DNA from: Convolutriloba macropyga
Lineage: Eukaryota
NCBI RefSeq assembly: GCF_964194025.1
Contig: NC_134471.1
Coordinates: forward strand, 25,358,001 to 25,422,000
Reading direction: 5' to 3'
Length of the DNA stretch: 64,000 bases
Positions 11,240 through 64,000 of the stretch are shown one piece after another (position 1 is the stretch's first letter; every line of letters begins with the position of its first letter). Below the pieces are notes generated by a model. The model was given only the letters and a program-made list of their open reading frames with translations. It searched no databases and was not told where the DNA came from. The translations under genes were made by a program, and so were the position numbers.

Positions 11240-12828
11240 ACATTTTTGTTGCGATTTTCTGTTGCTCACACAAAAAATGAAATTGGTAGCTGATTAGAGT
11301 GAAAATGCAAAGAAGCATGAAAATAGTGGGCCTTGAGAACTGGTGTTTAACACAATGTGCGCAAAAGTTGTATAACACAATGTGCGCTTTTTAGATTGTT
11401 CCTTTTGTCAATTGGAAGATCTTGCTAAGAAAAAGTATGCTTGCAATGTAAATTTTTTAATACTCTTTTTGAGAAGTAGGCTTTGTCTTTTTTATACATG
11501 ATTGCAGAAGTTGATCTGAAAGGGTACCACAAACAATACTTTTAAAGAAAGATTTGGAGCTTCATTCAAAAAAATTTTTTTGATGATTTTAGAGTAGTAG
11601 ATTTTGACGGCTCTCAATAGAGTTGGTTAATATTTCTAAATAAAGTCATATTTTTTTATTTAGTCTGCTTAAGGGTGCTAGGAAGTTGAGGCGGAAGGAA
11701 AATTAGCCGAATGGAATATAAGCCGAAAAGGAGATTTTAACCAATCAGATTGCAGAACTGTTGTGATATTTTGGTCGGTTGTGATAGATTCATATCAAGT
11801 CCCATAGGCCCATGAGGCATGGCCGTGGCACGCGAGGCATGGCCAAATGCGTTATTTTCATGTGTAAGCGAGTTAGATAATTGCGCATCCCACTTATGTT
11901 TGCTTATAGCAATTATCTCATGCAATCATTTCCGCTACTATTCCACGTTTTGACTTTTTCGGCTAATTTTCAGGTCGGCTATTTTTCCCTGCTAAAGAGT
12001 GGTAAATAATGGCAAATATATGGTAAGCTCTAAACAAATCCTTTATTGTGAGCCCTTAATTTGTACTGCGCCCGTATTCTGGTGAAGGGTTATTATTGAT
12101 AAAACAATGTGACTTTGATTTCAAATAATTTCATAGAAGCTCATATTCTTTCGACTGCTTTAAAAAATTGGAGAGGTCATATCTCAACTCTGGTGATAAC
12201 GTTCCAGTAGCGGAAATGGACCCTTTCTTTTTCTTTCGTTTGTTTCTGTTGTAAAAAAATAATAATGGTTTGCAGTACTTGGGTTTTGTGGATCATCATT
12301 TTAAATCTACGTCACTAGGCGGTTTATTTGTAGCCGTTGTCCGAGCTATCTTTTTCATCAAAATTTTGACAGATGAAATACGTTTAATTTTGTTTTTATC
12401 AAGAGTCTTAAGCTGGTCCCGAGCTCAAGCAAACCTCACCAGATTACAATTAAACTGAGCAATAAAAATACTATTGAATAAAAAAATGCTTTTGGAAAGA
12501 TATAAACCTGGGAATCGTCTAAACCTGGGAGCGAAGTTAAAACAAAGTGTTGTCTTTCGTGCTACTGCTATCCTCATTATCTCCCGCAGCATAAGTGAAA
12601 AGAATCCCTGAGCTTTCGGGTCCATGTAACTGCACTTTTTGTTCTACTGGAGAGAAATTACAATTACAGTCCAACAGAGACATCTAACTTCGGTCCAGCA
12701 GAGACTAAAAAAGTACTGCCAAATGGATTCGAAAGGTCATCTATTGGATGGTTTTTTACTGCTGCCACGCGAGACACCGAGGACATCAATAACAGGAAAA
12801 ACCAACACTCTGTTCAGTCCCGCAAAAG
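11240..12828 (+). repeat. Duplicated block, essentially identical copy at ~17760-19348
   Basis: Identical ORFs at a 6520-bp offset (11737/18257, 12270/18790, 12425/18945). Confidence 0.9.
11690..11992. mobile_element. MITE with GGAAAATTAGCCGA...TCGGCTATTTTTCC termini; second copy ~18210-18512
   Basis: Inverted, internally repeated AGCCGA/TCGGCT terminal modules. Confidence 0.55.
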
Positions 12829-12829
12829 A

Positions 12830-42100: not shown

Positions 42101-42704
42101 CAGATTTACATAATGAAAAAACATTTGTACATAAAGTCCAGTTATAGGCATCATAATTGCGATCTGAAATATGGTTTCGAAATCAATCCATTAGTTTTGT
42201 CTCAATCTATTTATTTTTTAATATCTTTTTTCGAAATTTGAGATGACCTTATGTTCATCATTTTATGATTTGAAAGGACAATGAACGCGAGCCTAGTCAG
42301 GGCCGCATGATTATGATTATGATACCACCGGAAATTTGAACGAATTCTTAGAAAAGTGTAAATGCATACCATCTATGGTATCCCCTGCGACTGATTTCTG
42401 GGAAATTTGCAGAAGCAAAGCATATTGGGTAACCCTTGCGACCTCCACTGTATATCATGGTGTCAAGATTAGTTTTGTATCTTGACTTTCTTGCACTGAT
42501 AATGGATATATATACAGCTGATCTTTGAGCCTTTTTTCATCCCCAAAATCAAATCATCATCTTGATCTAATAATCAGATCTCTCCTGTAAATCTCTAAAT
42601 TCTACTGTAAAATATCATTCTGGTTATTCTCTCATTTTGAGAAGTTAATTTTCTAATTAGTTAAAAACGCTTTCCTTCCGCTTGCGAAAACCCATAACCC
42701 AACA

Positions 42705-42717
42705 GGTTATGGGCCCA
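42705..42717 (+). other. Copia primer-binding site (internal tRNAi-Met fragment type)
   Basis: GGTTATGGGCCCA directly after the LTR-terminal CA, as in Drosophila copia. Confidence 0.85.
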
Positions 42718-42836
42718 TCAATTTTCTAAGTAAAAAAACTAATTTCTAAAACAAAACTAATTGGTTGTTGACAGTCATAATCCTTTTCTGCTTAGTACCT
42801 TTTCTTTTCACAACTGTTTTGCCTACTCAAACTACG

Positions 42837-45800
42837 ATGGATCAACAGACAGTCAAGCTGCTGACATACACTGGAAAGGCACAGGACTTTCCAATCTGGA
42901 GCACAAGACTTGTGGCAATGATGCAGACGAAGGGACTCTACAAATCACTACTTGGGACAGAGGAGCAACCCAATGAGCCTGCACCACTAGCCAATGGGGC
43001 GATCAATGATAAAAAGAAGAACCACAATGTGCTGAGGGATGCATATGAGAAAGAAGTTGCAGACATCAAGGAGAAACGGAACAATGTGTGGTGCCATCTG
43101 GCACTGACTTTAGATGCAACAACCCTCATGCTGATGAGACATGACTGTGTGGGAGATGACGGCGTCGGAGATGGGGCAAAGGCTTGGAATCTTTTGCAAG
43201 AGAGATTTCAGAGTGTGAAGACGACGACAGTGGTGACTTTGGTGGCACAGCTTGCTCGACTAGAGCTCGAGGATGCTCAGGATTTGGATAGCTTCTTCAT
43301 CAAAGGACAGGAGTTCCTCACAAGGCTACAAGAAGCAGGCGAAGCAGTCTCAGAGACCCTCTTCAGCGCCTTGGTCCTCAATGGTCTGCCAATGAGGTAT
43401 GAAAGTTTTGTTATAGAGGAAAACTTTAACCCGGCAACGAACTTCACAGAGTTGAGGAAAAGCTGCAGAACTTCCATGAGAGCACAGCACAGAAGCACAA
43501 GGGGACAAAGTGGCTCAGTGGCACTGGCACTGAAGCGTGACTTCAAGAAGGGACCCAGGAAAGGAAACTGCTTTGTGTGTTGGATCCCTGGACACTTTGC
43601 CAAGGACTGCAGGAGGAAGGAAACAGCACAATGCAGCAAATGTGGTGAGAAAGCTCACCTAGACAGGGCATGCAAGAGACAAAGAGATGGAGGCATACAT
43701 GAGTCAGTGGCAATGGGTCTAACATTGGCTTCACCAGACGAGGAATACTGGGCAGCTATTACCCAGTGGAAGACAGCAGGCATGCTAGCGGACAGTGGTT
43801 GTACAGATCACATAGTGACGAACATCGATGCGTTCCTATGCATTGTGCCCATTCAATCAGTGCTCAGAAATCCCAACGGATAGGCTTCCAGAGTGGTGGG
43901 CAGAGGCTTTGTGAGGATCAGCATACCCTCAAACAAAGGGGAAATCCAATGCGAACTCAAAAATTTTTTGTGTGTGCCGGACTACTCTTCAAACCTCTTA
44001 TCAGTCTCAAGATGCACGGAGTTGGTACATAGTTTCACCTTCGTGAAAGGAAATAGCTGCATGAAACTCCAGAAGGGAACTCGGGTAAAACTAAAACATG
44101 AAAATATTTTGCATTACTTACCCTGCAGCGTTCTAGAATTCAAGATGAGTTCTCACAGCGTGTAACTTGACAATGCAAGGAAGTGGCACAGACAATTAGG
44201 TCATTTGAATCAAGCGGATGTGGTCAGGAATGCACCAAAAACAGTGGGGGAACTCGATGATGTATGTAATATGTGCGCATTGGCCAAGATCACAACGACC
44301 CCTGTACCACGATTGGCAGAGACCCAAGCAGAAGAGAAGCTGGAGAGTGTGTTCACAGATGTGATGGGACCTTTCAGAGTAGAGTCACTGTCAGGGTTTC
44401 GGTTTTGCATTGTGTTTGCAGACCAGTACACAAAGTCTGTGTTTGTGGATTTACATAAGGCAAAGAGGGAAGCACCGGCCAGCCTGAAGAAGTTGGTTCT
44501 CAGTGTGGGGACGCCCATGAACTTGAAACAAGACAATGCGAAGGAGTTTCTCTCAGGGCAGTTCAAGATGTACTGTTTAGATGCAGGCATTCTACAGGAG
44601 AAGACTATACGAGAGACGACACAATAGAATGGGTTAGCTGAGAGGCGCAACAGGGCACTGCTGGAGATGGCAAGAAGCTTGCTCATTAACTCGGGTCTTC
44701 CCAAGACGATGTGGGGGCAGCAATTCTCCGTGCAACAAGGATCAGGAACTTGGTTGTGAGACGAGGAGAAGAAAAATGCCCAGCGGAGCTGATGCGAGGT
44801 ACAAAACCTAAGCTTTCATTTAGTAAACTATCTATTTTTGGTTGCACAGTCTTCATGAGGAAGCGGGACAGAGATGTCAGCAAACTTGAATGCAAGACAC
44901 TGGAAGGAAAAATTGTGGGTTACACTGAAGGAGACAACGGATACCTGTTGTACGTACCCAACACACGCAATGTTGTGGCAGTCCGAGATGTGATCATCAA
45001 GGAGTCCGAAGTGGGCTCAATCCCTGACAACACAGAGACGCCCGACCTATTAGATGAGGGGTCACAGCAACTGGGGATCTGGCACCCAGATGATGGTCAT
45101 CAAGACGATGGCAACAAAGAGGAGCAGGGCACATCTACTGCAATAAAAAAGGAGTGGCATGATGCAGAGAGCGTGAACAATCAAGAAACGACACTGAGAC
45201 GAGATGCCTCAGATGTTGATAAAGCGGCACTGGATGAAAAATCTACTGCAACAAGAGGGAGTCTCAGAGACTCAGAAGGAGTAATTGGAAGACAGTGAAA
45301 CGGAGGTCTTCTCACAGACTCCTTAAAGGCTCACAGGCTTCTTTGAAGAGGCACTGGAGCAAGTGGAAGGGCAGAGCCCAGACGGGGAACACGAGCAAGG
45401 AATGTGCCGCAATTTTTTGGAGAATTCAGGACCCATCTTGCTGTGACTGAGGGAGACTATGTGGAACCCAAACTAGTCTACAAAGCCAAGCAAGGTGACG
45501 ATTGGGACCAGTGGCAACGGGCAATGAATGACGGGGTCAAGTTACTCCAAGACAACGATTCTTGGAACCTAGTGAGACCACCCACAGACAGGGACGACAT
45601 ACCGGGAAAATGTGTCTACATAGTGAAATTGCGACCCAGTGGTCATGTGGACAAATACAAAGCACGCTATGTGGCAAAAGGTTTCAAAAAGGTGGAAGGA
45701 ATGGACTACTTTGAAACTTTTGCGCCCACCTGTAAGCCAGAGACATTCAGGATTCTACTTCAACTATCAGCGAAGCAGGGCTATGTGATGCACCAGTTTG

Positions 45801-47035
45801 ATGTCAAGTCGACTTTCCTGCACTCACCAATGGAGGAAAAAGTGTATCTGGAACAGTCACAGGAGTTTCTAAAACAAGGATCAGATGGGGAGAACTTAGT
45901 ATGCCGACTGAAGAAATCAATTTATGGTTTGAATTAGGCAGCTAACAACTGGTATAAGGAACTGGCAAATTTCCTACTGAGACAGGGTTTCACCAGAAGC
46001 AGGAATCACCATTGCTTGTTCGCAAGAGCAGAGACAGAGGGTCACATTTTCATCTTCGTCTGGGTTGACGACATCATAGTGGCATCAAGAAGCATGACAG
46101 TGATCTCCGATGTCAAAAAACCACTCGAAGCAACATTTCACATAGAAGACAGAGGAAGATTACACTGGTTTTGGGGTCTAAGAATCAGACGAGAAGAGGG
46201 CAAAGTCACAGTCGACCAAGAACGCTACGTAGAAACAATGCTTGAGTGTTTTTAAATGGATCAATGCAAACCCTCAAGAACTCCAGTTGATTTGAATTTG
46301 AAACTTCAGACAACACAGAACGGAAACAAAGAAGTGGACCAGAGGATCTACAGAAGCTTGGTTGGGTCACTTCTGTATCTGGCCAAACAGACAAGGCCAG
46401 ACATCATGTTGACAGTCAACATTCTGTCCAGATACATGAATGCACCTACCAATCAACACTGGATGTGCGGAAAAAGACTTCTGCGATATCTTCAAGGTTC
46501 AAAAAGTTTAAAACTTACTTACACAGAAGAACCTAGTTATGATCTAGTGCGCGAAAGTGATACAGAGTGGTCTGGGGACGTGAACGACAAAGAAATCAAC
46601 GACGGCTACTACTTCCAGCTCAACGGACGTGGCGCAGCACTCAGCTGCGGTGTCAAGAAGCAGGCCACAGTTGCTCTTTCTTCATCAGAAGCAGAATATC
46701 AGGGCATGGCAGCAGCAGTTCAAGAAGCGTTGTATCTGAAACAACTTCTGGAGGATTTTGGCATCCAACAGAAACATCCAATAGCAATTGGAGAGGACAA
46801 CCAGAGTTGTATTAAATTGTGCCAAAATCCAGTCATGCACAAGAGGAGCAAACACATTGAGACAAAATTTCACTTCATTCGTGACAAGACGGAAGATGGG
46901 ACTATTTCAATTACTTACGTTACTACTGGCAAAATGGCAGCCGACATCTTCACGAAATCTTTACCCGTATCGACGGTGGAACCATTCAGAACTGTTTTGA
47001 TGGGAACAGACTCTACGCAATCAGCTCAAGTCTGA
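42837..47035 (+). pseudogene. Copia gag-pol polyprotein with several stops and frameshifts
   Basis: Two CCHC knuckles (CFVCWIPGHFAKDC, CSKCGEKAHLDRAC), protease DSGCTDH, WHRQLGH..CxxC, integrase DVMGP..QDNAKEF, RT YKARYVAKGF/WVDDII, RNase H SSSEAEY/EDNQS/ADIFTK. Confidence 0.93.
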
Positions 47036-47043
47036 AGGGGGGT

Positions 47044-47898
47044 TGTTACGCACTGATTTTTAAAGGTTGACTTTATGGTGTTATTGAGGTAAATATTCGA
47101 AGCAAATAGTTAGCAAAATTGACATTTTATATGGACTTATTTAGTGTTTCACAGTGCAATTTTTAGCAGATAAATTTTGAATAAAATTAGCTAGTAATAG
47201 CTTTTTATTGAGCGGTTCAGATGCGTGATATATCCACTAGTTTGCCTTGTATTTTAAAGTTTTGTTAATAAAGGTTTCGGATCTAATGAATTTGACTCAA
47301 ACTTAGAGTTTTTAGAGAGATATTCCAGTTCAATTTTTAATTATTTGAGCAATAATTATTTAATAACTTTAGCAAAAATTTTCTCAAGTTTTATAAGATG
47401 TTAGGCAACTTATTGTCAGGCTGGTTCTCCGGTGTTCTGCTGACAGTGGGTTCCGCAGGACTGTGTCCTGAGTTGTATTGGTCCTTCGCAAATATTTACT
47501 GATTTTCAAGCTGGGCAATTTCCGGCTTTTGTACGTCTCTTGATGTTTGTTAAGTACATATACAAGTTCCGTATTAGCACCTACTTTATCAGAATAATTA
47601 CTTCACCAAGTACATAATCTCTCACAAAGTTATTTACTGATTATGTGAATTTATCATCAAGAAATTCAAAAAAGTAAATATTGAGGCTTTTAGGCACTTA
47701 ATATGTTTGCTATTAAACTGTCACTCTGCGGTTGTTTTTCGTAAACATAAACAAATTAGAGGTTACAGGCCTAGATGGAAATACTGGCTATATATGGCCT
47801 TGAAACTAACTGAATACTAATTGAAATAAAGCACCTAATTATGGATATTTTAAGGAATATCATCACGTAACTATGAGGGACGAAATAGGGGCGTGACA
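47044..47898 (-). repeat. 3' LTR of the Gypsy element (~855 bp)
   Basis: Termini TGTTACGC (47044) and GCGTGACA (47898) form a 7/8 inverted repeat with TG...CA; lies downstream of env; no similarity to the copia 5' LTR; partner LTR not in window. Confidence 0.7.
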
Positions 47899-48487
47899 CT
47901 ACCGGACTTTATGAAAATTTTCCATGAAAATTTTGGGAAAAAACTGGGTTTTACAATTCTTCTATAAAACATATAATCTGCATCAGTATGAGGATATAAA
48001 CATATTTTTGTTGGAGCCACCCAAATTAAGTTTTCTTAGAAAAGAGTTTTGAAACGAAAGCTTTTAAGTTAAAGACAATTAAAGAAGTTAAGAGAAATAA
48101 AGTTTAAGTTAAGACAAATGGAGATAAAGTTTAAAGTAAGGAAAATTAAGACAAGATTAAGAGCTTTGAAGGAACATTACAGATGTGAAAGTCTGCTAAT
48201 TTCAAAGTAAAGAGTGAAGACATAAGGTAAGGTTAAGTTTAAGAGAATAACGGGAATTAGCACTGGAAATAATCATGGTTATTTCTTTGAAAAATGGCTC
48301 TAAACTTTTAGAAGGAGGATAAGAAGAATGCTGGTTACATGAAGGGTTTAAAGCACTGGTTGATTTCTGGAAGTGAACAGTTATTTCGAGTATATAAAGC
48401 ACTGATTAGTTTTACTTAGTGAATGAATGGGTACTTAATCTGTGAAAAGAACAATACTTATCGAACTTTTATAAGATTTTCAAGAGC

Positions 48488-50622
48488 TTAAAGTATACTC
48501 TCGTCTCGGGGTTGAGCTTGATAGTCCAATTCGTCATCTGTGTTAACTCGATCCATGGTGTTGAGTGACATGGTAGAAGTTGCAGGCATGGAATTTCGTC
48601 GTTGTCGTTTGAGGGTTCCAAGTTCTTCTGGGGAGATGACTGTTGGCGGTTGCTTTAGTTGTTTGGCTAAAGTAGTGACTACATCTGCTTTCAGATGTTT
48701 GGGTACGGAAACTACTGGGTTTAGCGGTACATTGTTTCCGTTAAGGTTCATGGAATTTGGTACCATTCGTCGTACAAAAGCTACTTTATGGTATAAGAAC
48801 ATGAAGAGAATATGTAGGGCTAGATTTCCGACAAAGACAATGATTGTTAGCGAGAGAGAAAGTTTGATTGGAACGTAAGATTCAAGTTTGTCGATTAGTG
48901 CTGGCTTAAATGACTTCATTTCAGTAGTAATTTTTTTGCTACGGCATCTAGTGATTCTGTTGATAACTTTCGATTCGAGTAAATAAATTCTGTTTTAACT
49001 TTCTTTAATAAATCGAGATTTGCTCCAGTGCTTGATTCATACTTTGGAAGTTCGTTTATGTTCGGAACTGAGTCAATTAAATGTGCAAGTGGATCTGGTA
49101 ATTTTACATTAATTCTCGTTGCTGGAAGGTACTGACAGCTTTGTAAATCAGCTCGAATTTTAATGTGGTCACTGAACATTGTATGTCCACATTTTAATGT
49201 GATTAAACAGATATTACAACCTTTATGAGGAACATTGGTGTGTCGGCCATTTTCATCCGTACCAATCTTACTAAGGGTATAATCACTTGAAGCTGATGTT
49301 AGGAGCCAAATTCCGTATCCAAGGTTCTGTGCTCGTTCAGGGTTGGGTAACACAACCTTCTCTGTGTCACATACTTTCAATGCTGAGATTGAGTGGTGAA
49401 ACTTGAGGGTTGCTAGACACGAGGAGAATCAAAGGTGGGTTTCCATTGTCTCATGACAGATTCGGTATCGTGGCTTTCCAAGACAGTTGTCATACTGAGC
49501 TTTCGTCAGTACTGTAGTTTCCATCTGTCCTTCTGAGATTGCTAAGTACTCTCCCTCTATCACGTATCGTAAGGCATCTACAGAGTCCTTCTGAGGCATA
49601 GGGATTACAATTGCACGATAAACTTCAGACACTGTCTGGCTAGAGGCTAGGGGAATGGCTAGTGTCAGTAAAAGTCCTTCTTCAACTGTCGAAATCTCTT
49701 GTACTAATTTCGCATCGTAGTACGAAAGTATGTCAGTCATGGGTATTGCCAATGTTAGACGATCTGGGGCGTTCTTTTGGCTATCATGGACTGCATCAAG
49801 GATCTTAATTAAAGATTTTCGAGGTACTAAAGAGATTGGAAGGCGTTTGTCAAGTAGAGTAGGTATAGCATTGATAACATTAATTCGAAAAGAATATAAT
49901 GCTGCTCTGTAACTTTTGATATCTGCATAAAGAGTAAGAAGTAATGAGGCTGCTGTGTCAAAGTTAAAGTTCACTTGTTGCCGTGATGATTGAATTTCCA
50001 TACAGGCTGCTAGTGCAGTCAGATTATGGTCTACAATTGCAAATTGTTCCTCAACTAGTTTCCAGTTTCTGTTCTGGTTTTCTTGCATTTCGTTTTGAAC
50101 TTTATAAACCTTTGCAAGTTCGTCAGCAACTAGGAAAAACTTCTCATCGGTTTGTGCGCCGATTTCCATGACATAGTCGTTAAGGCAATTAAAACTGTTA
50201 GCTAATCGATCGATGTTTTCAGCGTTTTGAGATGTGCGCTGACAAAATCCGAAAATTCCTGTTATTCCACCGCATCCTGCGCTGCTCATTGCTATTCCTG
50301 GGCCGAAAAGTCCAATCCAGCGACTGCGGCTGCTATAGCAAGCGGGGCGGCTCTTTTTGTAACTTGACGTCATGTTACAAAACTCTGACTTTGTTATCCA
50401 TTTATCTGAGAGTTCGTTAAGTAGAGTCTCTACTTGTTGTCGTATCGTGAAATTATAACGAGGAAACGGGACTAAAAATTCCACGTTAATGAACTTCTCA
50501 GTAATTAATATCTTCCCTTCCTTATGGAAAATTATTCCTTGAGTCAGAGCTGCTTCCGTGTTAATCGGAGTCTCAAAACTGGGGCCGAAAAGTACGAGAC
50601 TTAACACAATTGTAAGCAACAT
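48488..50622 (-). pseudogene. env: env-like class I fusion glycoprotein (~710 codons; one in-frame stop at 49429, one frameshift at ~48930)
   Basis: Signal peptide MLLTIVLSLVLFG, basic site RSR followed by Gly-rich hydrophobic WIGLFGPGIAMSSAGCGGITGIFG, heptad repeats, Cys-rich region, TM LSLTIIVFVGNLALHILFMFLY, cytoplasmic tail. Confidence 0.85.
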
Positions 50623-51824
50623 TTTCGTATTTCAATAATAACAACTATGTTTCAGGACAATCTTCTACTGATGTGGCTCTTCTAAGTGTTTCAACTGGTT
50701 CTATTTGGTCTTCTGGTGTTTATTTGTTCATTTATGTGCGTTACTCGGGCTTCTAGTTCTAGCTTTCTCAATATGGCACTTGTTTATGTGATGTTTACTC
50801 ATTTCAGGTGTACTCTACTTTTGGGTCATGTGTGCTAATGTGTGTATTTATTGATATTACTACTAAATATGGAGTTTAAACATGTTAAAGTGTAGTTATG
50901 TGGTTGAATGGTGGGTGTGTGATGATGGGGATAGTGGTTGGGGGGTCGAATTGTGCAGTGTTTACATGTTTTTTCGAGTTTTTTCAGATTATATTGCCCC
51001 CAATATTGCACCATGTGCTTTAATATCACTGTTTTTGCCCTAACTATTGGATGTTGTACGAATGGGACCAGGTTTGTCGGAAGGAACGCTGTTCACTGGT
51101 CAAGATTGATTCATCCAAAGTGTAATATGACGGCAGTAGATAATATATTTATTGACAAGGAGAGTGGTGGTGGGAGTGAGTGGTGGATTATTATTATATT
51201 AGTAATCTTTTTATTATTATCATTAGTATCTGTGTTGTTGTGAGTGTGGGCAAATCGGAGGAGGAAAAGGAGGAAGTGAAAAGATCAGAGGAAGCTGTCG
51301 GGGAAGATTCAGTGTGACTTATTATTTATTTTTATTATAATTAATTATATTAATTGTTGTAATATTGTGTAATATTAATATTAATATGACTGCATAGGGA
51401 CTATTGGAACTGACTTTTATATTGTAGTTGTAGGTGTAATATTGACTGGTGCTACTAATATACTTCTCACATGGTGCTAGTAATATGGTAGTAATTAGTA
51501 TATGTCAAATTTGTTTTGTGAGGGAATAAGCGCGTAAGTAGGGGATAAAAGGAAGAATTTGGAGGTAAAAGAATAAGTAAATATTAGTGAAGGGTGTAAT
51601 TTTGTGTTCAGAGCGGCGTTGTGTGTTTTGCGGCATGTGTTTTTAGCGATTAGTGACCGTAGTGGCATGGTATTTAAACGACCTTGGCATTTATTGCATA
51701 ATTTGTGCTGTTTGTGTGTTTTCATTCCTGTGATTGTTCATTTTTGACTTAACACTTTAACTTTCTGCTTGCTTAATAACTAGTTTGGCTCAATATTTGA
51801 ATTTTCAGATAGTTATTGCTAGTC

Positions 51825-53307
51825 ATGGATGTTGCCCAGTATGAGGATTTTCTGACTTTCTTGCGGAGCAAGTCGTTGTCTCAATCGGAATGGATGTATC
51901 CATCATTTGTTCGGACATCTGAGGAGCGACGAGCTTATCGGGACAAAGCGGAGCACATGGTACTGGGAACAAAGAATGTGGGGACTTCAGAGTTGGCTGT
52001 AAATCGGGAGGTGTTGATGTATAAGGTGGAAGTGAAGGTGGGTAGCGAAACGCAAGTTCAGGAGAAGGAAATTCCAACTCAGCAGATGGTGTCTCAGGAG
52101 TTGGCTTCGCTTCATGTCGGGTTCAGTGCTTCTGCAAAGCACATTATTCGTGTGAGGTCACAGGTCGATCGTCTGAAAGCTGCTAGGTTCTTCTTTCCAC
52201 GGTCGATGGGTGGATTGGAGGCCGCTGTTGAGAGGTAATTGCATATGTTTATAATATTCATTTATATTTCTATTTGTTTTTCTTTAGTTTGTTACATGTA
52301 TTATTAATTGTGGTGTGGTGTATGCTAATTGTTTAGAGCACGTCGTGAATGTGTGTCAAGTTTCGTGAAGAAGATGCACGGCAAAGAGGTGCATCGCACT
52401 TTTTTCCGTGCAAATCTTCGTGCAAACTTGTGTGCCGAATTGGGGTACGAGTTTACAATGACATTTATGCTGAGTATGTGGACGTAGTGTCATTTAAAAC
52501 TCCAAAGTTGCCTGGTGCGGCTGGTGTGAGGGCCGAAGTTGGTGGTCTGTTTGCTCTCAGTGCTCTGTACTACACTTTAACTGGTCGGAAGTCAGGTATT
52601 TGTTGTATTTTATCGCAGTTTTCAGGAAGTTTAGGGCTTTAATTCACTTTTAATCGATTTATTACAGACAAGAAGGTTCCCAAGCATAATGTTCATGCTC
52701 TACGCTTGGCTATTGTGGCCAAAATGCGTTCGCCTGTGTTCTCTGAGCTTGTGAAAGACCAGTTAGGGTACTTCGTGTCGGAGTATGAGATTGCTGAGAG
52801 TGAAGATAATGGGTCGTTGGTCGAGTTCTGGGTAAATTATACCTTCAATACGTGGTAATTCTGGTATATGCATGTGTAGATATGTATGATTGGAGATTTT
52901 GCTGTTTAGTTTGTCGGTATGGCATATTTCTTCGGATGCAATGTCAATACCTATTGGCAGTATACTGAGGAAATGGGGGCGGCTGGGTGTGTTACCGGCA
53001 TTCTATCAATGCTAAGACCAGCGCTCCTGCTGTACTGATCCAGTGCATCGGGAAATTCATCAACAATGAGTATCGGTACCATTGTGAGCCAATCGTAGAC
53101 TTTCCAAAGTGAGTATTTAACTGCTTTTGTGAAGATTTATCGTGTTTTTCGTGTAAATTTGAGGCTTTTTGATCATTATAATGACATTTAAACAGGTTGG
53201 ACGATGCTGAGCGGTACGTGACTCGTTCTACTAGGACAAGGGGTCAGTCCGCTCAGAGTACTAGTGGTGGTGGTACCGTAGCTGAGGATAGCGCCGGTGA
53301 GAAATGA
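51825..53307 (+). pseudogene. Antisense spliced gene inside the Gypsy element: YPYY/H2C2 integrase-type N-terminus plus OTU-like protease domain (~381 aa reconstructed); exons 51825-52234, 52337-52595, 52668-52831, 52910-53108, 53196-53307
   Basis: Four short AT-rich GT-AG introns (102, 72, 78, 87 nt; the third is least certain); exons total 1144 nt and restore to frame with two 1-nt insertions (~52452, ~52971); motifs YP..ERRAYR..LMY..LH..H..FFP..CVSS and GGLFALSALYYTLTG..HALRLAIVAKM..E.MAYFF..W.CY..HCEPI. Confidence 0.65.
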
Positions 53308-53870
53308 CTAGTGTCGGTGCAATTGTATTCATCATGTAGTTTAGTTTCATCTATAGGTGAGTTTTTACTTATTATTTGGCAATTGTAGCTTTGATAGTTG
53401 GTTTTTACTGTTAGAACTAGGAGCTGTGGTGTGTATGAGAGTGTGGTAACATTTTAATTGCGGTATGTGACTTTAAAATGACATATTGTTGAAAGTGAGT
53501 ATTTGATGACATAACTAATGTCTGAGCATTAACCTTAATTTACTTGTAAATTATTAATCATAGACAGGTTCCAATGGTTCTAGATACTTGTCCTGGTTGT
53601 TAGCAGCACTTGTGTCTAATTTGAACTGGTTTAGAAGAGTATTTGGTACTAATTTTCACAAGTAATTTTTTCGTAATTTTGGCCATTTTTCCGCATCAGG
53701 GCTGGTGTTACATATATGTGAACTTTTCGATTTTTATTAAACTTTGGGCAAATTTTTTGGCTTAGCCCACTCAGTAGACATCGGTGGGGAATAACTATGC
53801 TATAAATTCAGGTTTTTTGGCACTTTTTGGTGAACTTTTTCACTAATGTATTAAAAACCGAAAAATGCGA

Positions 53871-56055
53871 AAAATTGAGGGCTCCAGCATCACTCAATTT
53901 TTAAATTGCTCCAATCGGACTCAAAATTGGCAGGTCGCTTCAAGGGCTCAAAAAATCCGGCAGCGCAAATATTTGGCGTAATTTGAGCATTTTTCGCAAA
54001 GTTATGACTGTTTTTGTGATCTGAACCTGGCTATTTTTGGATCATGAAATTTCGGTCTGAATAAGTCGTCACTGTTCATACATTATCGGTATTGAATGGT
54101 TAAAATGGTACTGTCTGTGCTTGGTACTAGTGTATATTACTGAATTATAGGGTTTGAAGCTATTTATCGGGTCAGAACATTGATTTTTTTTTATCCAAAA
54201 TGCTAATTTTCAGGCATGATTTTTCCACTAATTGAGCTTCTTCGAGACATGTGTCAGTCTGGTGATTCTCTAGTGGCCTAAATCAGGTGCTAATTGTTAG
54301 TACTGATATCTGTGGTTTTCAGGGGTAGCATTTTGGTAGCCTTGAAGTTGAATAACTTGTGTTTTATGCCGGTCTTTCTGTGAAATTTACTAGATTTTTA
54401 CTTGTGAAGCATCATGTTTTGTGCATAAGTTGACATAGATTGGAGAAAATTGATTTTTGACAGTAATTGTTGATCATACTAGTGAGTACTATGTTAGTAG
54501 CGACTATTGGTTGCAGTTTGGTTCATGATTTGGCTTTACTATGTGGAGTTTTTTTACTTTAGAATTTTGGGTTAAATTTGATCAGATATGTGCAATTTTC
54601 GATTTTTTTCCTTTTTTTCAACATTTATGAATTTCTATGCAATTGTATGGGTTGATTAGGCTTAGACAATTACTAGGGAGACTGAATATTGGATATGGGC
54701 TCAAAATTCGGCTATTTGATACTATTTTTCTCGTCTGAATCTGGCTCTATTTTGTCGAATTTGAGAAGAGTCTGAAAGGCTTCAGTTTTTTACTTTTATT
54801 TCAACATTTTACTGAACAATTTTCAATATTTTTGATATGGGCGTGTACAGCTTGAGCATGCGGATGTTTTAAGCTAATAATATCGGAGCTAATAACAATT
54901 TTTGATCAATATTTCGGATCTTAGGAACTTGTTCGTAAATTTTCAAAAAGTCTCCAAAATTGAGTGGCCCAGCGTCACTCAATTTTTTAAATGCTTCGAT
55001 TGAGCTCAAAAATGATGGATCGCTTTATCGGCTCAAAAAACCCTGCAGCGCAAAAATTTGGGCAGTTTCAACAATTTTTTCACTAGTTATAACGTTTTTG
55101 CTGCAGTGAACCTGGGTTTTTTGAAAAGGCTCAGATAGAGGATAGGTTATTGGCTATGAGGCTATGAAAACTTGTTCAAAATGATTGATATTGCTATGGT
55201 TGGATTGCTCATGAATAGTGCTAACTGAATTAACAATAAATTTAGGCATATTCAGGTATTAAGAAGCATTTTGATCACTTTAGTTGGAAATTATACTTAA
55301 ATTTTTGTGATTTTCGTTATGTTGGCAGTCTTTTCTCAGCTTGTATTGGCACTAGGGGCTGGAAGTGCATATTCTGAGAGTTATATTCTGAAGTGCATAT
55401 TCTGAAGTGCATATTCTGAGATGTGGGCGTGCTGGTGGTATGGTTAATTGTTGTCAGAAGTTAATAATATTGACTCTAGCTGGAAAATAACTGAATTTTT
55501 TCTGACAAAATTGTGGCAATTTCAGAGCTTATTTGGGTTTAAGTCTTCATGGTTGATACTGGGATGAAATGGGATTGGTTTTTATGGTACTACAAGGCTA
55601 GTGATGGGTTGCACTAGGGTTGTAGTGGGTATAGGTGGCTTTTATCGGTTCAGGTGGAGAATAAAATGACAAAATTTTTGAAGCGGAGGATTGAAGCAGA
55701 AGCGCAATTTTGGTTTTTTCATCATTTTTCAACATATGCTTGGAAACATTGGGTTTTAATCCTTGTCTGAGTTTGTACCATATAGGTGGCTGTTGGGAGT
55801 AGCTGCTGGAGGCATTTGTGACAGTTTTTGGCATATTTTTGGGGGTTTTTTGTGGGAGTTATCATTGAATTCGAGCGGATTCGAAAAGTGTCAAAAATTG
55901 AGGGCTCCAGCGTCACTCGATTTTTAAAGTTCTCCAAATCGCTTCGAAATTTGCATGTCGGTTCCTCGGCTTGAAAAGTGCTGCAGCGCAAAAAAATCGG
56001 GATGATCGGGGCTTTTTTCACAATTTTATTACTATTTTTCTGAAGTGAACCTAGG
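53871..56055. repeat. Three dispersed ~160-bp hairpin modules (53871-54030, 54956-55115, 55893-56055) within the Gypsy element
   Basis: Each starts AAAATTGAG..CCAGC.TCACTC.ATTTT, contains GCAGCGCAAA and ends TGAACCT. Confidence 0.8.
55362..55420. repeat. Short tandem repeat, ~4 x AAGTGCATATTCTG
   Basis: Direct reading. Confidence 0.85.
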
Positions 56056-56339
56056 ACTTCCGGAAGGGTCAATTTTAGGCTAAGTTTTTGGTACTTTAAA
56101 CGGGTCAAATGGGGTCAATAATAGCGGGAATTGCTTCTAATAGATAAGGGCTTTTCAGAACAATGGGTTAATCCAGGTTCAGACAAGTAGTTCTGGAGAT
56201 ATAACAAAATAACTAGGATTTGAGGTCATAATTTTTCGAATTTTTTGCGATTTTTGGACTTTAGGGCTAACTTGCTAAGGATTGTTGGGCTTTTGGGTCA
56301 AATGAAGGGTGCTGCTAGACTGTACTGGGTCTTTACATG

Positions 56340-56789
56340 CTAATGGATATAGATGTTTATGGGTAGAGGGTCGAAGACTTGACATATAAGCTCAAAAGTG
56401 ATGTTAAAATCCAGTTTATCATAGCCACTGGCGAGTTTTGGAAGACTTAAGTGTGAAGTTCCTGCATCTATTACTATTTCTCTCAGTTCATAGAGACTTG
56501 CTAATACGGATTTGTGTGTGGGTTTGTGGTAGTATCTAAATTTGGTGACTAAACTGAAGATATAACGTTCAGAAATGGGGTCGAAGTAAATTAAAACTGA
56601 GCCAACATCAGGTGGATATCTAAGTCTAATTGCACTTGGGGCTGCTGGGTACCAGCTTTTGACTTGTCGGGCTAATCCCTTTGTCATTGCAAGGTCTGCT
56701 GATATACAGTGTGCAAAAGAGTGTGGAGAGTATAAGATATCTGTTGGTGAACTTAGATATGTTGCATTTATTTCTTGACTAAAATGATT
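56340..56789 (-). CDS. TARG1/OARD1-type macrodomain, probably the C-terminal extension of Pol
   Basis: Frame is open upstream of the listed ORF: DILYSPHSFAHCISADLAMTKGLA...RYIFSLVTK...KPT...LSLPKLASGYDKL...VF; compare human OARD1 SLAHCISED.MGAGIA / YYLITK / MPRIGCGLDRL. Confidence 0.88.
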   Translation of the reverse strand, partial: NHFSQEINATYLSSPTDILYSPHSFAHCISADLAMTKGLARQVKSWYPAAPSAIRLRYPPDVGSVLIYFDPISERYIFSLVTKFRYYHKPTHKSVLASLYELREIVIDAGTSHLSLPKLASGYDKLDFNITFELICQVFDPLPINIYIH

Positions 56790-57109
56790 TAATTTTTTGG
56801 TTTGAAGAGCCTGGTGAAGAGTTTTTTGTTTGAGATCAGGTTACTGGTTTGTTTGCTGAACTGCTGGACTTTTTCCCTGAAAATTTTGCTATACTTGCTC
56901 TAACTTGATCTAGTTTTGTCTCTCTACTTGGTGTATTTGACTGTTTTGCTGCTTGTGCTGATGCTTTTATTGCTTCGCGTCTTTCTTCTTGTTCGTCTGG
57001 CACGTGCATTTTTTGGTCTAGGACTGCCTGATCTTCTAACTTGGTTGATTAGGTAAGGGTTTGATCTATCTTTATCATGCAACTATATTTGTCTGCTCAC
57101 TTTGAACCC

Positions 57110-59100
57110 TTAGTTATTTTTCTTCTGTTGGTATTCTGGTGATTTAAAGGCACTTATCTCTGGTTTTCGTTTAGTGTGATAAGGTCGGGCACTTATTTTT
57201 CTATCAGTTAACGCAAATTGTTCTTCGTGTGTTTCTAGAGGCGACTCACTATCGAATGGTTCTATTGACGGTGGCTGGTGAGCTGGTAGAAACATTTCGT
57301 CATCTGATGAGGATGATACGAGAGGAACACGATTTTCTGGTTCTTGCTGTCGAATTTCATCAGCAATTAGTGGATCAACCGGTATTCTTGCTATTTGATC
57401 AGCATCTAGGTTCTGGTCAGCTAGGTTTTCGTCTGAACTACTATTTTCTTCAAATAAGTTAGGAATTGCTTCATCTGAGCTTGAAGAATCAAATACTGGA
57501 AAATGTACTGGAGCTGTTCGTGGTCTAACTGCTGGTGCTACTACCCTTGGTGGGGCCGGTGGTGCTGCTGGAAGTGCTGCTAATGCTGTTCCTGCTAAGG
57601 GTTTACCTAATGGAACATTTTTAGTCACTTTTACTGGGTCCTGCTTCACTTTTGTAGCTTGTTTTATCTCCCTTTCTTGTTCCTTTATCAATTCCGGGAT
57701 ATGTTTATCGAATAGGTATGGCTCCATATGTTGTTTCCTAGATGGATCAGGTTGAAATTTTGCAGGGTTGATAGTCTCGAGGTCTTCAGGAGTTTCACTT
57801 GGTTGAATTGGTTTCAATCTTATTCGATGAACAAACTGGGTGTAATTCATATTTACTTTTCGAATGATGTAATTAGAGTCAGTAAGGGCTTTTTCCACTC
57901 TATAAAGCGGTAGCCATTTCTGAACTTGGGAAGCTATTACCATTGATTGCTCTAGTAGCTTAGGACTCAATAGTAAACAGAATGATTTTTCCGGAATCGG
58001 TTTTGCTGAAGCTTTTTGATCATAATACTTTTTGTACTTCAGGTAAGCAGTCGTTAGTTTTTCTTTGTTTTCTCCAAACTTTTGCATCATGGCGTCTTGC
58101 AGTTCATTAACAAAATCAGAATATACTGCTACTGCATCCATTACTTTTCTGGAGAACCTAATGTCAAGGGGCTTTATAGGTTCTCTGCCATGGAATAAAA
58201 TTGAAGGACAACAATTTGTCGCTGAATGATATGAAGTATTATGAATAAAAGTTGCAAGAGGAACATATTTGTACCAGTCTTTGCATTGTTCCTCAGTATT
58301 GAGCTTTAATATTCGTTTTAGTGGTCCGTGAGATTGTTCTACTGCTCCAATAGTTTGAGGGTGCTTTAGTGAAGCGTGCTTCAACTTTACTTCTAATAAA
58401 CTTGCTCATTCTGACATTAATTCTGAAGTAAAATTTGTTCCTAAGTCACTAAGTATCGTTTGAGGAATGTAGCTGTCTTGGAAGAACACCTTTACTAGTT
58501 CTCGGGATACTGTGTCAGCGTATCCATTCGTTAATGGAACTGCGAATAGGTACTTTGTGAAAACATCTATTCCACTCAGAACATACTTATATTGTGTTGA
58601 CTTTAGGGGGCCTATTAAATCAATTTGTAGCATACCTCCTGGATATGATTTTAGAGAACTGACTGGTTGTACCTTTGGTGTGATGTGGTTTTTTGGTACT
58701 CTGTTAAAATGAAGACAAGTGAGGCAGTTTTTGATGAAACTAATGAAATGTTCAGTGAAACCTGGGTAATAGAATCGCTTTCCAAATTCCTGAATTGTTG
58801 CTTTAATGCCTAAATGACCTGCTGTTTGTGAATTATGGAGCCTGTATATACTCTCTTTCCACAAAGTACTTTTCCAGTATCGCCATAAAAATTCCGGTAT
58901 GAGACATTTCCTTCAAGAATTAATCTGTTGAAATGTTTGTAATACTTTTTTAAATTGGTTGAAGCATACTTTAAGTCTAATTGTTGATTGTTTTGTTGAA
59001 TCCAGCCTATTACTGTTCTAATGTCTGCATCTTTTTGCTGCTCTTCTGTTAAATTGAGACTAATTAAGTTGTCTGTAAGGTCTGGGAATTCATCCAATGG
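57110..59100 (-). pseudogene. Gypsy integrase with a long Pro/Ala/acidic C-terminal linker (frameshifted)
   Basis: H..GHLG..CLTC, QIDLIGP, SDLGTNF, HPQTIGAVE. Confidence 0.9.
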
Positions 59101-59165: not shown

Positions 59166-61055
59166 CTACTGGGAAATTAGTTTTTTGTATTCATCATAGA
59201 AGCCGAGTTTTTTAAGCACATCAAGTTCGTCACTATTAATTTCATCACTAAAGTTTTCAGTATCAAGTAATACATTCAGTTCAATATCAGGATTTTGTGC
59301 TTCTGTATCAATTTCTATTTCTTTAACTGGAATTCTATCTGTTAATTTTAAAGACATTGTTGCTGTTTTGTCATTCTCCATTCGGGAGAAGAAATCTGCG
59401 GCGTAGTTAGCGCGTCCAGGAATGTGAGCAATTACTATATTAAATGCGAGTATTCTGTCTAAACAATTCCAAAGAGATGGCGGTATTACTTTTGACTGGA
59501 AGAATTGTGTGAGGCTTTTGTTGTCAGTGAATATAATTACTTGTTTACTTGATCCCCAAATGTACTGCAAAAAGTAGTCCAGCGCGTAGTACAAAGCTAG
59601 GAACTCTTTGTAATAGATTGAAAACTTTAATTGCGTTGCATTAAACAAATGCGATCCAAACGATACGGGAGCGTATATTTTCTTTTCTTTCTTTCCAGTT
59701 TCATTTACGTAGTCTTCCACCATTAGTACAAAACCTGCACCGTGGAAATTAGCGGCACAAAGAATTACATACTGTAGGCCTGGTTTTGGCAATCGCAATG
59801 TTACATTCGTTGCTTCCATTAGATCCTTCTTTATTACTTCTAATGCTTTTACGTGTTCTTCGGTAGTTTCTATCACTGCATCCTTCTTCAGGAGCTTGTA
59901 AAATGACATTAGTGTCTCACCTAGATTAGGTATGTAATTGCGGAAGAATTGAGTGAAGCCGATTAAACGCTTTACTTGTTTTGTCGTTTTTGGCATTTTG
60001 AATTTATCAAGAAATTTCGTTATTTTTGCTTTTTCTGGTGATATTCCTTCTGCACTGATGTTATTTCCAAGGAATTTCATTGTATCTGTTGCTATTTCAC
60101 ACTTTTCGGGCGACAGTTTTAGACCGGATTGACGTATACAGATTATTATTTCTCGCAAAGAGGGTACCAATTGTTCAAAAATTGTTACTGCATTTCCGAT
60201 ATCATCCATAAACTGGGTACAATTTCCTGAAGCTAAGCATGGGTCCAAGTAATGTCTAATAAATGAGCAAAATCCAGTTACTGACTTATTCAATCCTTGT
60301 GCCAGACATTTATAGGCATAAGTTCGCGAAGCAAAGTTAAAAGCTAGCAGTTGCACTGATGCATCGTCTGCCATTTGCACGCAGTGATATGATTGAGAAC
60401 AATCAAGTTTTGTGAATAATTTTTTCCCGGCAAAGTAGTTTATTGCATCACTCCTGTTCGAAATTGGGAAATTTGTTTTCACATAATCGTTTTTCAGCAA
60501 ATGATTTACTTTTCTCAAGTCAATTAATAGTCTAAGTCTTCCTGAATTTTTCCGTTGAGCGAAAAGTGGACTACTATATCTTGATTGAGACAAAGTTGTT
60601 ATCAGTCCGTAGTATTGCATTAATGCTGGTTCTACTTGTAACTCATTTCTCAAGTGGACAGGCGTTGGAGGGCCTTGTTCGTAAATTGGTATGTTTCTTT
60701 CTGGAGTTAGATTTATTTTTAAATCTGTATTATATCCAACGTCAAATCTGTGTTTCGCAAAGATATCACTGAATTCGACTAATAGTTCACCTACTACTGC
60801 TTTTTGCTCATCATTGAGGGCTGATTTGTCCCGCGGGAATTTGCTCAAAAAGATTATTTTGTCCTGATGGTTACCCTTTGGATCTAATTTCTCCATTTCT
60901 TGCAGTTTTAGCAGTTGCTCAAAGCTTTCTCTCTGCAAGGGCGACAAATTTGTCGGATCTGGGCACGTTTCAGGCGTTGGGAACCACAATTTTTCATATT
61001 CCGGGGCCGGTTTTGCGTATCTGTGGCGTATCTGTGGCCATATTCTTTTTGGCAT
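59166..61055 (-). CDS. pol: Gypsy reverse transcriptase and RNase H
   Basis: SSPLF..RLLIDLRKVN, KLDCSQSYH, QGL, FMDD, FLG; RNase H KEFLAL..TDNKSL. Confidence 0.93.
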   Translation of the reverse strand: MPKRIWPQIRHRYAKPAPEYEKLWFPTPETCPDPTNLSPLQRESFEQLLKLQEMEKLDPKGNHQDKIIFLSKFPRDKSALNDEQKAVVGELLVEFSDIFAKHRFDVGYNTDLKINLTPERNIPIYEQGPPTPVHLRNELQVEPALMQYYGLITTLSQSRYSSPLFAQRKNSGRLRLLIDLRKVNHLLKNDYVKTNFPISNRSDAINYFAGKKLFTKLDCSQSYHCVQMADDASVQLLAFNFASRTYAYKCLAQGLNKSVTGFCSFIRHYLDPCLASGNCTQFMDDIGNAVTIFEQLVPSLREIIICIRQSGLKLSPEKCEIATDTMKFLGNNISAEGISPEKAKITKFLDKFKMPKTTKQVKRLIGFTQFFRNYIPNLGETLMSFYKLLKKDAVIETTEEHVKALEVIKKDLMEATNVTLRLPKPGLQYVILCAANFHGAGFVLMVEDYVNETGKKEKKIYAPVSFGSHLFNATQLKFSIYYKEFLALYYALDYFLQYIWGSSKQVIIFTDNKSLTQFFQSKVIPPSLWNCLDRILAFNIVIAHIPGRANYAADFFSRMENDKTATMSLKLTDRIPVKEIEIDTEAQNPDIELNVLLDTENFSDEINSDELDVLKKLGFYDEYKKLISQ

Positions 61056-61457
61056 ATCTGTGACTTGAATTAATTGATTTATTTCTGTTTAATAATTTTC
61101 ACTCATTTTTGCTACATTTATTAATTGAGGATCTACTTCTAACAACTTTTCTGCTTGATCAGACGCTAAGAACAAGAATTTGGCTATTTCTTCGCCTTTA
61201 TTTATGGTAATTGGGTGATCAGTAAAGTTCAGGACGTAGATGTAGAGAATATTATTTTCAGCAACTTTACTTAATGAAGACGTTAATATTACTTCGCTAT
61301 CATTTTCAAAGATTTCATTTGGAATTATTACCCCACAAAGGTCAGTGAAAGATTATAGTTTATCGTAAAGCTTGCATTCTAATACTGCTTGTTGATTTGG
61401 TTGTAAGACTTGTTTTTTCTGTGTATAAACTCCAAATTTTTTGCGTTTTACAACTCT

Positions 61458-61860
61458 TCAGGGTTGCTTTTCTGGCTTTATTTCATTTATTTGTAGAGTT
61501 TGATCAGGGAATTTAATGTAACTTTGTCCTGGGCAGATGCTAACTTTGTGTTTAACGAAGAAGGGGTTGCCTAATATTACAGGAGTTGTGACAATTAAAA
61601 CAAGGAAATCTTCTGTAAATGTTTGTGTGCCCAATTTAAATGTAACTTTAATTGCTTTGTCAATTTTAACTATATTTCCGTTTGCCATTTTTACTTTATC
61701 TAGATCAGGTTTTTCTATTTCTGCTATTGAATTGATATTTGTAATAATAAGCTCCTTGTAAAACTCACGACTCATCACGTTTGCAAATGCTCCTGTATCA
61801 ATTAGTGCGCGTCTTTCTAATTCTCCATTAAATTTAACTTTAACATAGGATAATGTTCTG
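61458..61860 (-). pseudogene. Gypsy aspartic protease
   Basis: RALIDTGA (DTG at ~61791-61799) and VILGNPF. Confidence 0.85.
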
Positions 61861-62112
61861 CCTAAAAGTGGGACAACACTGAATAATGTGGTGTTGGCTT
61901 TGGTGTGGATTGAGGTACTTGTGTTGGGAGTTGCACAGATTTATTCACTTTACATTTATTATTATTACTTTTGCGTTTTCTACGCTTTTTGTTACTTTTA
62001 TTGTAAACTGGCTCTATTACTTCATCTAAACTAGGGCTATACGTGCTTTCGTTATAATGTTTAACTGAGTTTTTATAATTTTTATTTGGTTTTTTAAAGT
62101 TGGGTGGCTTTA

Positions 62113-63366
62113 TTAGTTTTTTTGTTGACTAAATGGAAAATTCATACCTCTCATATTTCTATTTTGAGGAATACTTGCACGATTGAACTGGTTTGCTTGC
62201 TGACTACCATATCGGTTTTGTGATGGGCTATCATAAACTATTCCCTGTCTAAGAAGGATTTGAGGGGTATTTTTTGTTGGGAACCGATAAATTTGTCTAT
62301 TAACATCAGCTGGTTGAACTAATGGGGGGTTATCTGAAGGTTCAGTCCAATAATTCCGAGTTTGTGGCTGTTCATTATAATGATATGGTCTAGGAGCGTT
62401 AAATTGTGGTCTAAACTCTCGGTAATTATTAGAACGGGGGGATTATTGTTGCTGGGGCCGATAGTTTTGCCGAAATTGACGATAATTGGGCTGATATTGA
62501 CGGTAATTTTGTCGATAATTCTGATATTGAGGGCGGAAATTTTTTCTATAACTTTGTTTGTAGACTTGTTGTGGGTAATGTGGTGTGAAAATGTTTGCTG
62601 GGCCTAATTCTGTTTGCTCAGTTTTAGGTGCTGTTCTCTGTTCAAGCTTCTGCTCAAGTTCTTTTTGATTATTTGAAATAACAGTTATTGCTTTTAACAT
62701 TTTATCAGTGTTTGTTTCAGTTATTTCATTAAATCCGTCATCAAAGTACTCTTCTCTGTTGCACATCTCCCTAATTGCAATCTGTTGGCTAGCTAAGGTG
62801 CATAATTGATCAATGGTATCTGTATCTGGCCTTTCTAAGAGCTTAGACTTAAGCCAATTTGGCATAGACTTAATAAAGAAGTGCTTTATTTGTTCGTTTT
62901 TTCTATTTTCTGACATCTGAAGGGCAGATTCTCTTGCTGCCGTCTCTCTTTTGAATCTACGGGCTTTAGGTTCACCTGCTCCTGCTGGCGCTACTACTAT
63001 GTAATGTGCTGGATATGCTTTATTGGCTTCAGTTCTTAACTTTACTAAGAAATTTTTTACAGTGTCTGTTTTTGGATTAAACTTTTGATTCTCTAACTTT
63101 ATGACTCTCATCTCTCTCAAGTCATCCTGCGTGAATCTATTTCTTAGAGCTGTTATACTGTCTTCGAAGACTAGTCTGGTAGCCTCTGGTAGAGTTAAGA
63201 AGTATCGTAAAGCGTCTCCTTTTAAATGTAACTGTAAAAAGTTCGCTTGTTGCACGTTTGCGATTGCTGCTACTCCGATTGCACCTGTTATTAGTTGTTC
63301 GAACTCGTTAAAATTGTCCCTTTCTGATCCGGAAAAAGGCGTGATGTTGATTTGCGCGTGTGCCAT
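62113..63366 (-). pseudogene. gag: Gypsy gag (one frameshift at ~62443) with a Q/N/R/Y/P-rich C-terminus
   Basis: PFSG..F..FE...LHLKGDALRYF..L.NRF capsid-type pattern; reading continues in another frame to TAA at 62113. Confidence 0.85.
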
Positions 63367-64000
63367 TTTGCTTTTTACCCGATTAGATTACATACTTTTC
63401 GTTAAATCAGTCTTACTTTCGTTCTAAAGTATTAAATAGCACACTTAACTTAACTCAATGGAGAAATTAAGGGGTTTTAAGAGATGAAAACAGTTAACTG
63501 AATAGCACAAGAATATCAGAAAAGAAACTACTGAAACCCTTCGTTTAGAGAATAATAAAGACTTATATCGTTGAAGCCGTATGGGCCGCCGAAGTCTCAC
63601 CTCTTAAGAGTGCCCATTAGTCTAGGAAAAATTGTGGGGACCACGACCGCACAGGCCTTGTGGAAGCTGCACTCAGATAGGCAACAGCATAATGACCGAA
63701 GTCACTGTTTGATTCATCAACCTCCGGAGCTGGGCTGGGAAATAAAATATAATTGTTTTATTATTCTGTTTAAAATTTTGTTTTGCCCTCTTTTAGTTAA
63801 TGTTTAAGTGATGGTTTCAGTAATTTAGCTTATCCTGATGTTATCTGATAATCAGTAATTATGTTTTCAAGGTTAATGTCTCTGTCAGATTGAAGTTTGT
63901 TGCAAATAAGGCCAAATTTGCGAACTTTTTGATTTAGACTTTTTGCTGTCCAATAAATTGCAACACGTTTATCATCTTTATCTAGCACATAAATGACAAT

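Follow-up and report, generated by a model that had tools for sequence, protein, structure and literature searches.

The window, a 64,000-nucleotide stretch of the Convolutriloba macropyga genome (NC_134471.1, positions 25,358,001 to 25,422,000), carries a real, conserved and spliced accessory gene that runs antisense inside an 18.4-kb, env-bearing Gypsy LTR element, between the integrase and the env-like gene. The gene is under purifying selection at the protein level, is found throughout a clade of such elements and has been inherited with them; its product is predicted to join an integrase-like zinc finger to an OTU-like domain. An intron-containing antisense accessory gene in a retroelement is what the original prediction had described. 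Read on the minus strand, the carrier has the order gag, protease, RT/RNase H, integrase, macrodomain ORF, (antisense gene) and env-like gene, with the following features.

47044..47898, minus strand: 3' LTR of 855 bp, TG...CA
48488..50631, minus strand: env-like gene in three pieces, with a hydrophobic N-terminal stretch and a hydrophobic C-terminal segment
56340..56840, minus strand: TARG1/OARD1-like macrodomain ORF (sibling ORF against human TARG1 structures, E 1e-13; position conserved)
57110..58912, minus strand: element integrase (H2C2, rve), in pieces
59166..61088, minus strand: reverse transcriptase and RNase H, from a domain search
61458..61940, minus strand: aspartic protease, from a domain search
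62443..63387, minus strand: gag-like ORF, assigned by position (Pfam gave nothing over the cut-off)

The PR-RT-RH-IN order, the paired TG...CA LTRs, the primer binding site (TGG) and the 5-bp target duplication place the carrier in Ty3/Gypsy. Its partner LTR lies 556–1410 bases beyond the window end and the two LTRs are 96.4% identical; the LTR pairs of five siblings are 90.5–99.9% identical. The whole element is nested in a Copia element (gag, integrase and RT; window positions 42129–47043 and past the window end), the insertion being just before the Copia 3' LTR. The env-like gene is a candidate on the grounds that it has hydrophobic segments at both ends and keeps its position; Pfam and the PDB gave no match for it. 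Rfam has no match within 47000–57200. The spacer between the antisense gene and the macrodomain ORF holds a 167-nt repeat three times (53871–54037, 54956–55122 and 55894–56060), which starts with an imperfect 33-nt palindrome, is also present in siblings and is without an Rfam match. Elsewhere in the window, and unrelated to the antisense gene, are a 21-nt tandem repeat between inverted arms (8786–9158) and a block of 2.4-kb tandem repeats (10263–18417).

In the window sequence all four introns begin with GT and end with AG, and the junctions lie exactly at the predicted positions. The gene is laid out as follows.

51802..51808, plus strand: splice-acceptor-like TTTTCAG, 16 nt 5' of the ATG; predicted 5' UTR intron or trans-splice acceptor
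51825..52234, plus strand: exon 1, integrase-like N-terminus with both His of the HHCC finger
52235..52336, plus strand: intron 1, GT-AG, 102 nt
52337..52595, plus strand: exon 2, zinc-finger CxxC, linker and OTU Cys box (G-x-C); frame break in the window copy
52596..52667, plus strand: intron 2, GT-AG, 72 nt
52668..52831, plus strand: exon 3, predicted helical portion of the OTU-like domain
52832..52909, plus strand: intron 3, GT-AG, 78 nt
52910..53108, plus strand: exon 4, predicted OTU strands and His box (HCxP); frame break in the window copy
53109..53195, plus strand: intron 4, GT-AG, 87 nt
53196..53307, plus strand: exon 5, short tail and TGA; unconstrained in close copies (dN/dS 1.0)

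The original prediction had the gene run from 51809 to 53307; the end and the exons stand, and the start is revised to the ATG at 51825, 51809 being merely the first base after the TTTTCAG. In all eight distant rows that begin at the first Met, TTCAG or TTAAG is found 5–7 nt 5' of the ATG. The introns of the window copy span 72–102 nt and have a G+C content of 23–32%, against 46–55% in its exons. This copy is not intact: the frame is broken in exon 2 and again in exon 4, and other amino acids replace the predicted catalytic Cys and one Cys of the zinc finger. The modal exon lengths of 30 aligned copies (410/260/164/200/112 nt) give a product of 381 amino acids, in agreement with the roughly 381 proposed, and the frame is open from ATG to stop in 10 of the 30, one of the ten having a non-GT donor. 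Four sequencing runs that matched the gene (no RNA run among those listed) covered the introns, and the four junctions were absent among the joints shown, which has no bearing on expression.

The gene occurs in well over 100 places of the genome. A DNA search of the 1.18-Gb assembly, in which 40 of 164 candidates were scored, gave at least 41 matches (40 of them near full length, 84–100%), and a search with exon 1 gave 174 candidates, of which each of the 150 that were scored was a match, so that there are at least 150. The spliced frame has a dN of 0.025, a dS of 0.10 and a dN/dS of 0.24 in the 13 close copies with modal exon lengths, the other 17 of the 30 aligned copies being left out for non-modal lengths or as the window copy itself; in the same 13, dN/dS is 1.1 and 1.7 in the two other plus frames and, as expected, 0.27 in the mirror frame, and third codon positions are the most variable. 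Divergent copies agree, with a dN/dS of 0.18–0.34 in 14 comparisons (14 of 17 copies, three being dropped as truncated or too decayed). Splice dinucleotides are canonical at 235 of 240 sites in close copies and at 109 of 129 in the 17 divergent copies, against fractions of 0.74 and 0.40, respectively, expected from intron divergence. Exon DNA is mostly 77–91% identical compared to 51–81% for introns, and exon lengths are fixed where intron lengths are free (intron 1 has about 95–111 nt in intact divergent copies). Not one of 47 aligned copies shows precise intron loss; the two without intron sequence are also without exon sequence. In the decayed divergent copies, the predicted catalytic Cys is kept in 13 of 17 and the His in 14 of 17, no better than the median site (0.82). 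The dN/dS of about 0.2–0.3, the fixed exon lengths and the residues that stay invariant at 21% protein identity together demonstrate selection acting on the protein. Introns persist in retroelements only in antisense orientation to the packaged genomic RNA, and we suggest that those of this gene are kept because that RNA carries them in reverse.

A comparison with sibling elements, proposed as a check, put the gene at the same position, both flanks being common to all 29 close siblings fetched. Beyond these, the strand opposite env and/or pol carries pieces of the gene in 68 of 69 additional stretches (20/20, 20/20, 9/9 and 19/20; the one miss had no gene match), which form at least 13 sequence groups when grouped by eye; as the stretches were picked by matching the gene, these counts do not give the share of related elements without it. 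Distant families of the same genome, reached via database fragments at about 30% identity, have their donor sites at the same protein positions. In five of five tested, the LTR pairs are 98.9–100% identical and the elements measure about 13–14.5 kb; these families are young and have been inserting very recently. Over 11 elements, identity ranges from 41 to 91% for the integrase and from 21 to 91% for the gene, and the two sets of distances are correlated (Spearman 0.57, a value reached by 1 of 2000 permutations). Trees of the gene, the integrase and env, from the last of which one stretch without env (L143) was omitted, have their best-supported deep clade in common and differ in shallower branches. 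The macrodomain ORF is present in most families of the clade, with no match in one branch. The gene is thus clade-wide and inherited with its carrier element, and, being a conserved ORF under selection that lies antisense and 3' of pol, it belongs with the antisense accessory ORFs.

The OTU-like C-terminal domain of the original prediction is borne out by profile homology over the whole domain. A diverse alignment of 14 rows from nine groups, compared with 14 OTU domains of the same genome, gave an HHalign probability of 97.2% (E 4.4e-11) and a score of 76.5, whereas none of 30 column shuffles exceeded 16.9; with the introns left in, the values are 95.4% and E 1.9e-8. The template set in turn matches the structures of OTU1, OTUD3 and OTUD5 (E down to 3e-10) as well as viral polymerase OTUs; the one template examined in full is a Helitron ORF. 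The G-x-C and His-Cys-x-Pro motifs are invariant in all 14 rows, and, along an aligned stretch of about 120 columns, their Cys and His coincide with the catalytic pair of the templates. At His+2, 13 of 14 rows have Glu; one family has Asn there, and a further one Leu. OTU proteases are marked by a DGxC box and a WGG..E motif; in the 14 rows the Asp of the former (Cys −3) is absent, its position being variable, and the latter is replaced, so the ubiquitin-binding site may differ.

This signal, like that of the N-terminal half, arose only once the distant families were added. The close copies gave colinear but non-significant matches for both halves (for the OTU domain, P was 0.058 and HMM scores did not rise above decoys in a full-length set from which 29 of 47 rows had been dropped). 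A profile check of both domains, suggested at the outset, therefore came out positive by comparison through distant families and negative by direct search: Pfam has no family at a useful score for the exons, the intron read-throughs or the alignment members (PF02338 and PF17921 included), and the PDB searched by sequence has no match for exons, read-throughs or alignment. AlphaFold models of the read-throughs reached a pLDDT of 33 and 45, and a fold search with a low-confidence read-through model gave a best Z of 4.6, OTUD1 coming 17th with a Z of 3.8 and an rmsd of 7.8 across 90 residues. A protein database search, of limited sensitivity, gave no longer relatives of exon 1. We rejected a PDB row for heliorhodopsin (E 0.03) as chance-level, and the best ESM Atlas match to exon 1 (score 0.81, unnamed) was not taken as a lead.

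The N-terminal half matches integrase H2C2 regions more modestly than the C-terminal half matches OTU domains (HHalign 55.7%, E 1.1e-4), scoring 36.8 where shuffles gave 23.2. Its ligands occur in the order H, H, C, C and are invariant in 14 of 14 rows. We regard it as an HHCC-like finger of the integrase type, so that the H2C2 N-terminus of the original prediction is retained on invariant ligands and a weaker profile match. The YPYY signature noted alongside it is only partly upheld: Y6, Y25, P26 and Y38 are kept in the window's subfamily, and YPYY is not invariant in distant families. A DDE core had been predicted to be missing, and indeed about 60 residues separate the CxxC from the OTU Cys in all rows, with no rve match and no GPY/F.

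As to origin, it had been proposed that the gene is a captured derivative of Ginger, and we give roughly even chances to a single capture, in reverse orientation, of an internally deleted Ginger1 transposase (YPYY, HHCC, OTU and introns) by the clade's ancestor. Ginger1 transposases are described as having H2C2 and DDE domains, an OTU or Ulp1 domain and 1–4 introns (PMC2836005), and those with a C-terminal OTU resemble our gene in that an HHCC finger precedes the OTU and the introns are GT-AG (PMC2836005). Loss of DDE after host domestication is documented for the Ginger1-derived Imagin (PMC12863088), and plant Retand elements carry DNA-transposon-derived domains in antisense (PMC11963269). 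Imagin, GIN1 and GIN2 are likewise multi-exon, integrase-derived and have kept H2C2, Imagin being without DDE function; as described, they differ in being single-copy host genes without an OTU, whereas our gene is kept by a mobile element at well over 100 places (PMC12863088, PMC2836005). Ginger1 proteins of 500–800 amino acids (PMC2836005) also stand against a gene here of at most 381, inside an LTR element and lacking the DDE core, GPY/F and TIRs. No inverted repeat of 40–270 bp with a 4-bp target duplication, as would flank a Ginger, surrounds the gene (50400–56400), and neither the 69 stretches nor the protein database searches yielded a DDE-bearing relative. In the end, we conclude that, without DDE core and TIRs, the gene is not a Ginger element; the antisense accessory gene part of the proposal stands, and a Ginger1 origin is not established, with YPYY not invariant in distant families and Ginger1 having been compared by description only.

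A chimera, in which a duplicated integrase N-terminus was joined to an OTU from a Helitron or a host gene and the introns came from the donor or were gained later, is a reasonable but somewhat improbable alternative. OTU-bearing Helitrons are known (PMC2836005), and this genome has Helitron RepHel ORFs with an N-terminal OTU, which are what the gene's domain matches. As Helitron OTUs were the main templates compared, that match is no proof of closest kinship; moreover, the Helitron ORFs are intronless over about 2,470 codons and a chimera needs two captures against one. Several such ORFs occur in the genome, for instance an intronless one of at least 2,466 amino acids with an N-terminal OTU at L145:2599-9999 on the minus strand.

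As to function, we think it somewhat probable that the product is an OTU-type protease aimed by its zinc finger, most likely a deubiquitinase that counters ubiquitin control by the host. In this mechanism, an integrated copy would be transcribed in antisense, with either an internal promoter or the 3' LTR as the starting point, and the transcript would be spliced onto the acceptor just 5' of the ATG. The gene would then encode an active OTU-type cysteine protease joined to the integrase-like finger. With zinc bound, the HHCC module would bring the protease to chromatin or to the integrase complex of the element itself, and the protease would remove ubiquitin or a ubiquitin-like modifier from proteins by which the element is held in check. 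As a result, element proteins would be shielded from degradation or ubiquitin signalling would be damped. The substrate and the docking partner are pure inference on our part.

An OTU fold that does not act as a deubiquitinase seems rather unlikely to us. The domain could cleave something else (itself, Env or Gag), or it could serve for binding, its Cys and His holding zinc. The missing DGxC Asp and WGG..E, the varying third triad residue, the Cys next to the His in all 14 rows and a further invariant Cys in the linker would allow this; on the other hand, Cys and His keep the register of the catalytic pair, and the Glu at His+2 is as in Helitron OTUs. The Cys directly after the predicted catalytic His is present in exon 4 of all families and is not found in the Helitron OTU templates. 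It is very improbable that the antisense RNA is what counts, through double-stranded RNA regulation of the element, and that the protein is incidental: regulatory antisense transcripts of LTR elements are discussed in PMC7264820, but fixed exon lengths, invariant residues and above all dN/dS largely refute such an explanation. The idea that a DNA transposon jumped into this copy alone, as a secondary event, can be set aside, nesting being common here (the element itself is inside a Copia element) but the gene having the same position in all close siblings and at least 13 groups, codiverging with the integrase and lacking TIRs.

Several RNA viruses counter host ubiquitin and ADP-ribose defences with OTU and macro domains, the same two enzyme classes that we find in this parasite genome. 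Here they are separate genes on opposite strands of a retrotransposon, and the OTU, whose activity is predicted, is spliced and fused to a zinc finger. The likeness suggests a larger picture, which we offer as a speculation and consider doubtful: that this is an old, still active Gypsy clade with a two-part counter-defence kit of the RNA-virus type, a sense TARG1-type macrodomain and a spliced deubiquitinase on the antisense strand, the latter having arisen when one mobile element domesticated the transposase of another and being tethered through the integrase zinc finger to the element's integration complex. A literature search for a macrodomain together with an LTR retrotransposon and Gypsy found no paper.

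The HBZ gene of HTLV-1 is a spliced antisense gene with its acceptor just before the coding part. Like our gene, it is an accessory gene that an env-bearing retroelement carries in antisense, and the acceptor is near the coding start in both; it differs in its unrelated protein, in the four internal introns found here and in the Gypsy rather than retroviral pol of our carrier. An antisense promoter in the 3' LTR has been described for retroviral antisense genes (PMC7264820). The plant Tat/Retand elements offer a second parallel: they have antisense ORFs, many with a transposase-derived domain, and Tat, Retand and Grande hold a conserved antisense accessory gene between pol and the 3' LTR, that of Retand carrying TRP28 (PMC7264820, PMC11963269). 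Our gene differs from these in its four conserved introns, its OTU-like protease with intact Cys and His, its env-like neighbour and, often, a macrodomain; the word "intron" does not occur in the main text of either paper. Env-carrying metazoan Ty3/Gypsy elements (PMC13524379) and the Oikopleura Tor elements (PMC4402516) have the same gag-pol-env LTR plan, and Tor elements have internal promoters between pol and env (PMC4402516). PMC13524379 surveys metazoan elements with env, and its main text has no occurrence of "antisense", "OTU" or "macro". Bdelloid elements are known to capture extra ORFs (PMC5408684). Among literature titles and the beginnings of abstracts we found no description of such a gene, and supplements and Repbase reports may annotate these elements. 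Among antisense accessory genes of LTR elements, this one appears new in combining an enzyme domain with four introns and a history that reaches deep and spans the clade.

LTR retrotransposons are usually treated as gag-pol(-env), and to our knowledge the extra antisense ORFs known so far mostly lack a recognisable enzyme. Here an enzyme gene with four introns has been retained through a radiation in which integrases have diverged to 41% identity and the gene to 21%. If deubiquitination is what the product does, the gene is a sign that the host restricts retrotransposons through ubiquitin and, given the macrodomain, also through ADP-ribose, and it would be a handle with which to test this; should the capture have been as we propose, this would be a case of one transposon domesticating the gene of another.

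ORF-based annotation misses genes of this kind, and the databases contain only exon fragments of the present one. A search of viral contigs gave no match, and in metagenome contigs two loci have a 30-residue match (E 1e-4). Four database fragments (P0043, P0044, P0045 and P0047) are about 30–45% identical to anything in this genome and have introns 2 and 3 at the same positions where these are covered, which hints that the gene may occur in other genomes. Finally, tandem duplications of the gene region together with env or the macrodomain, in single elements or in arrays, are seen at several loci (L038/L039, L144, L151, L153, L179 and L049).
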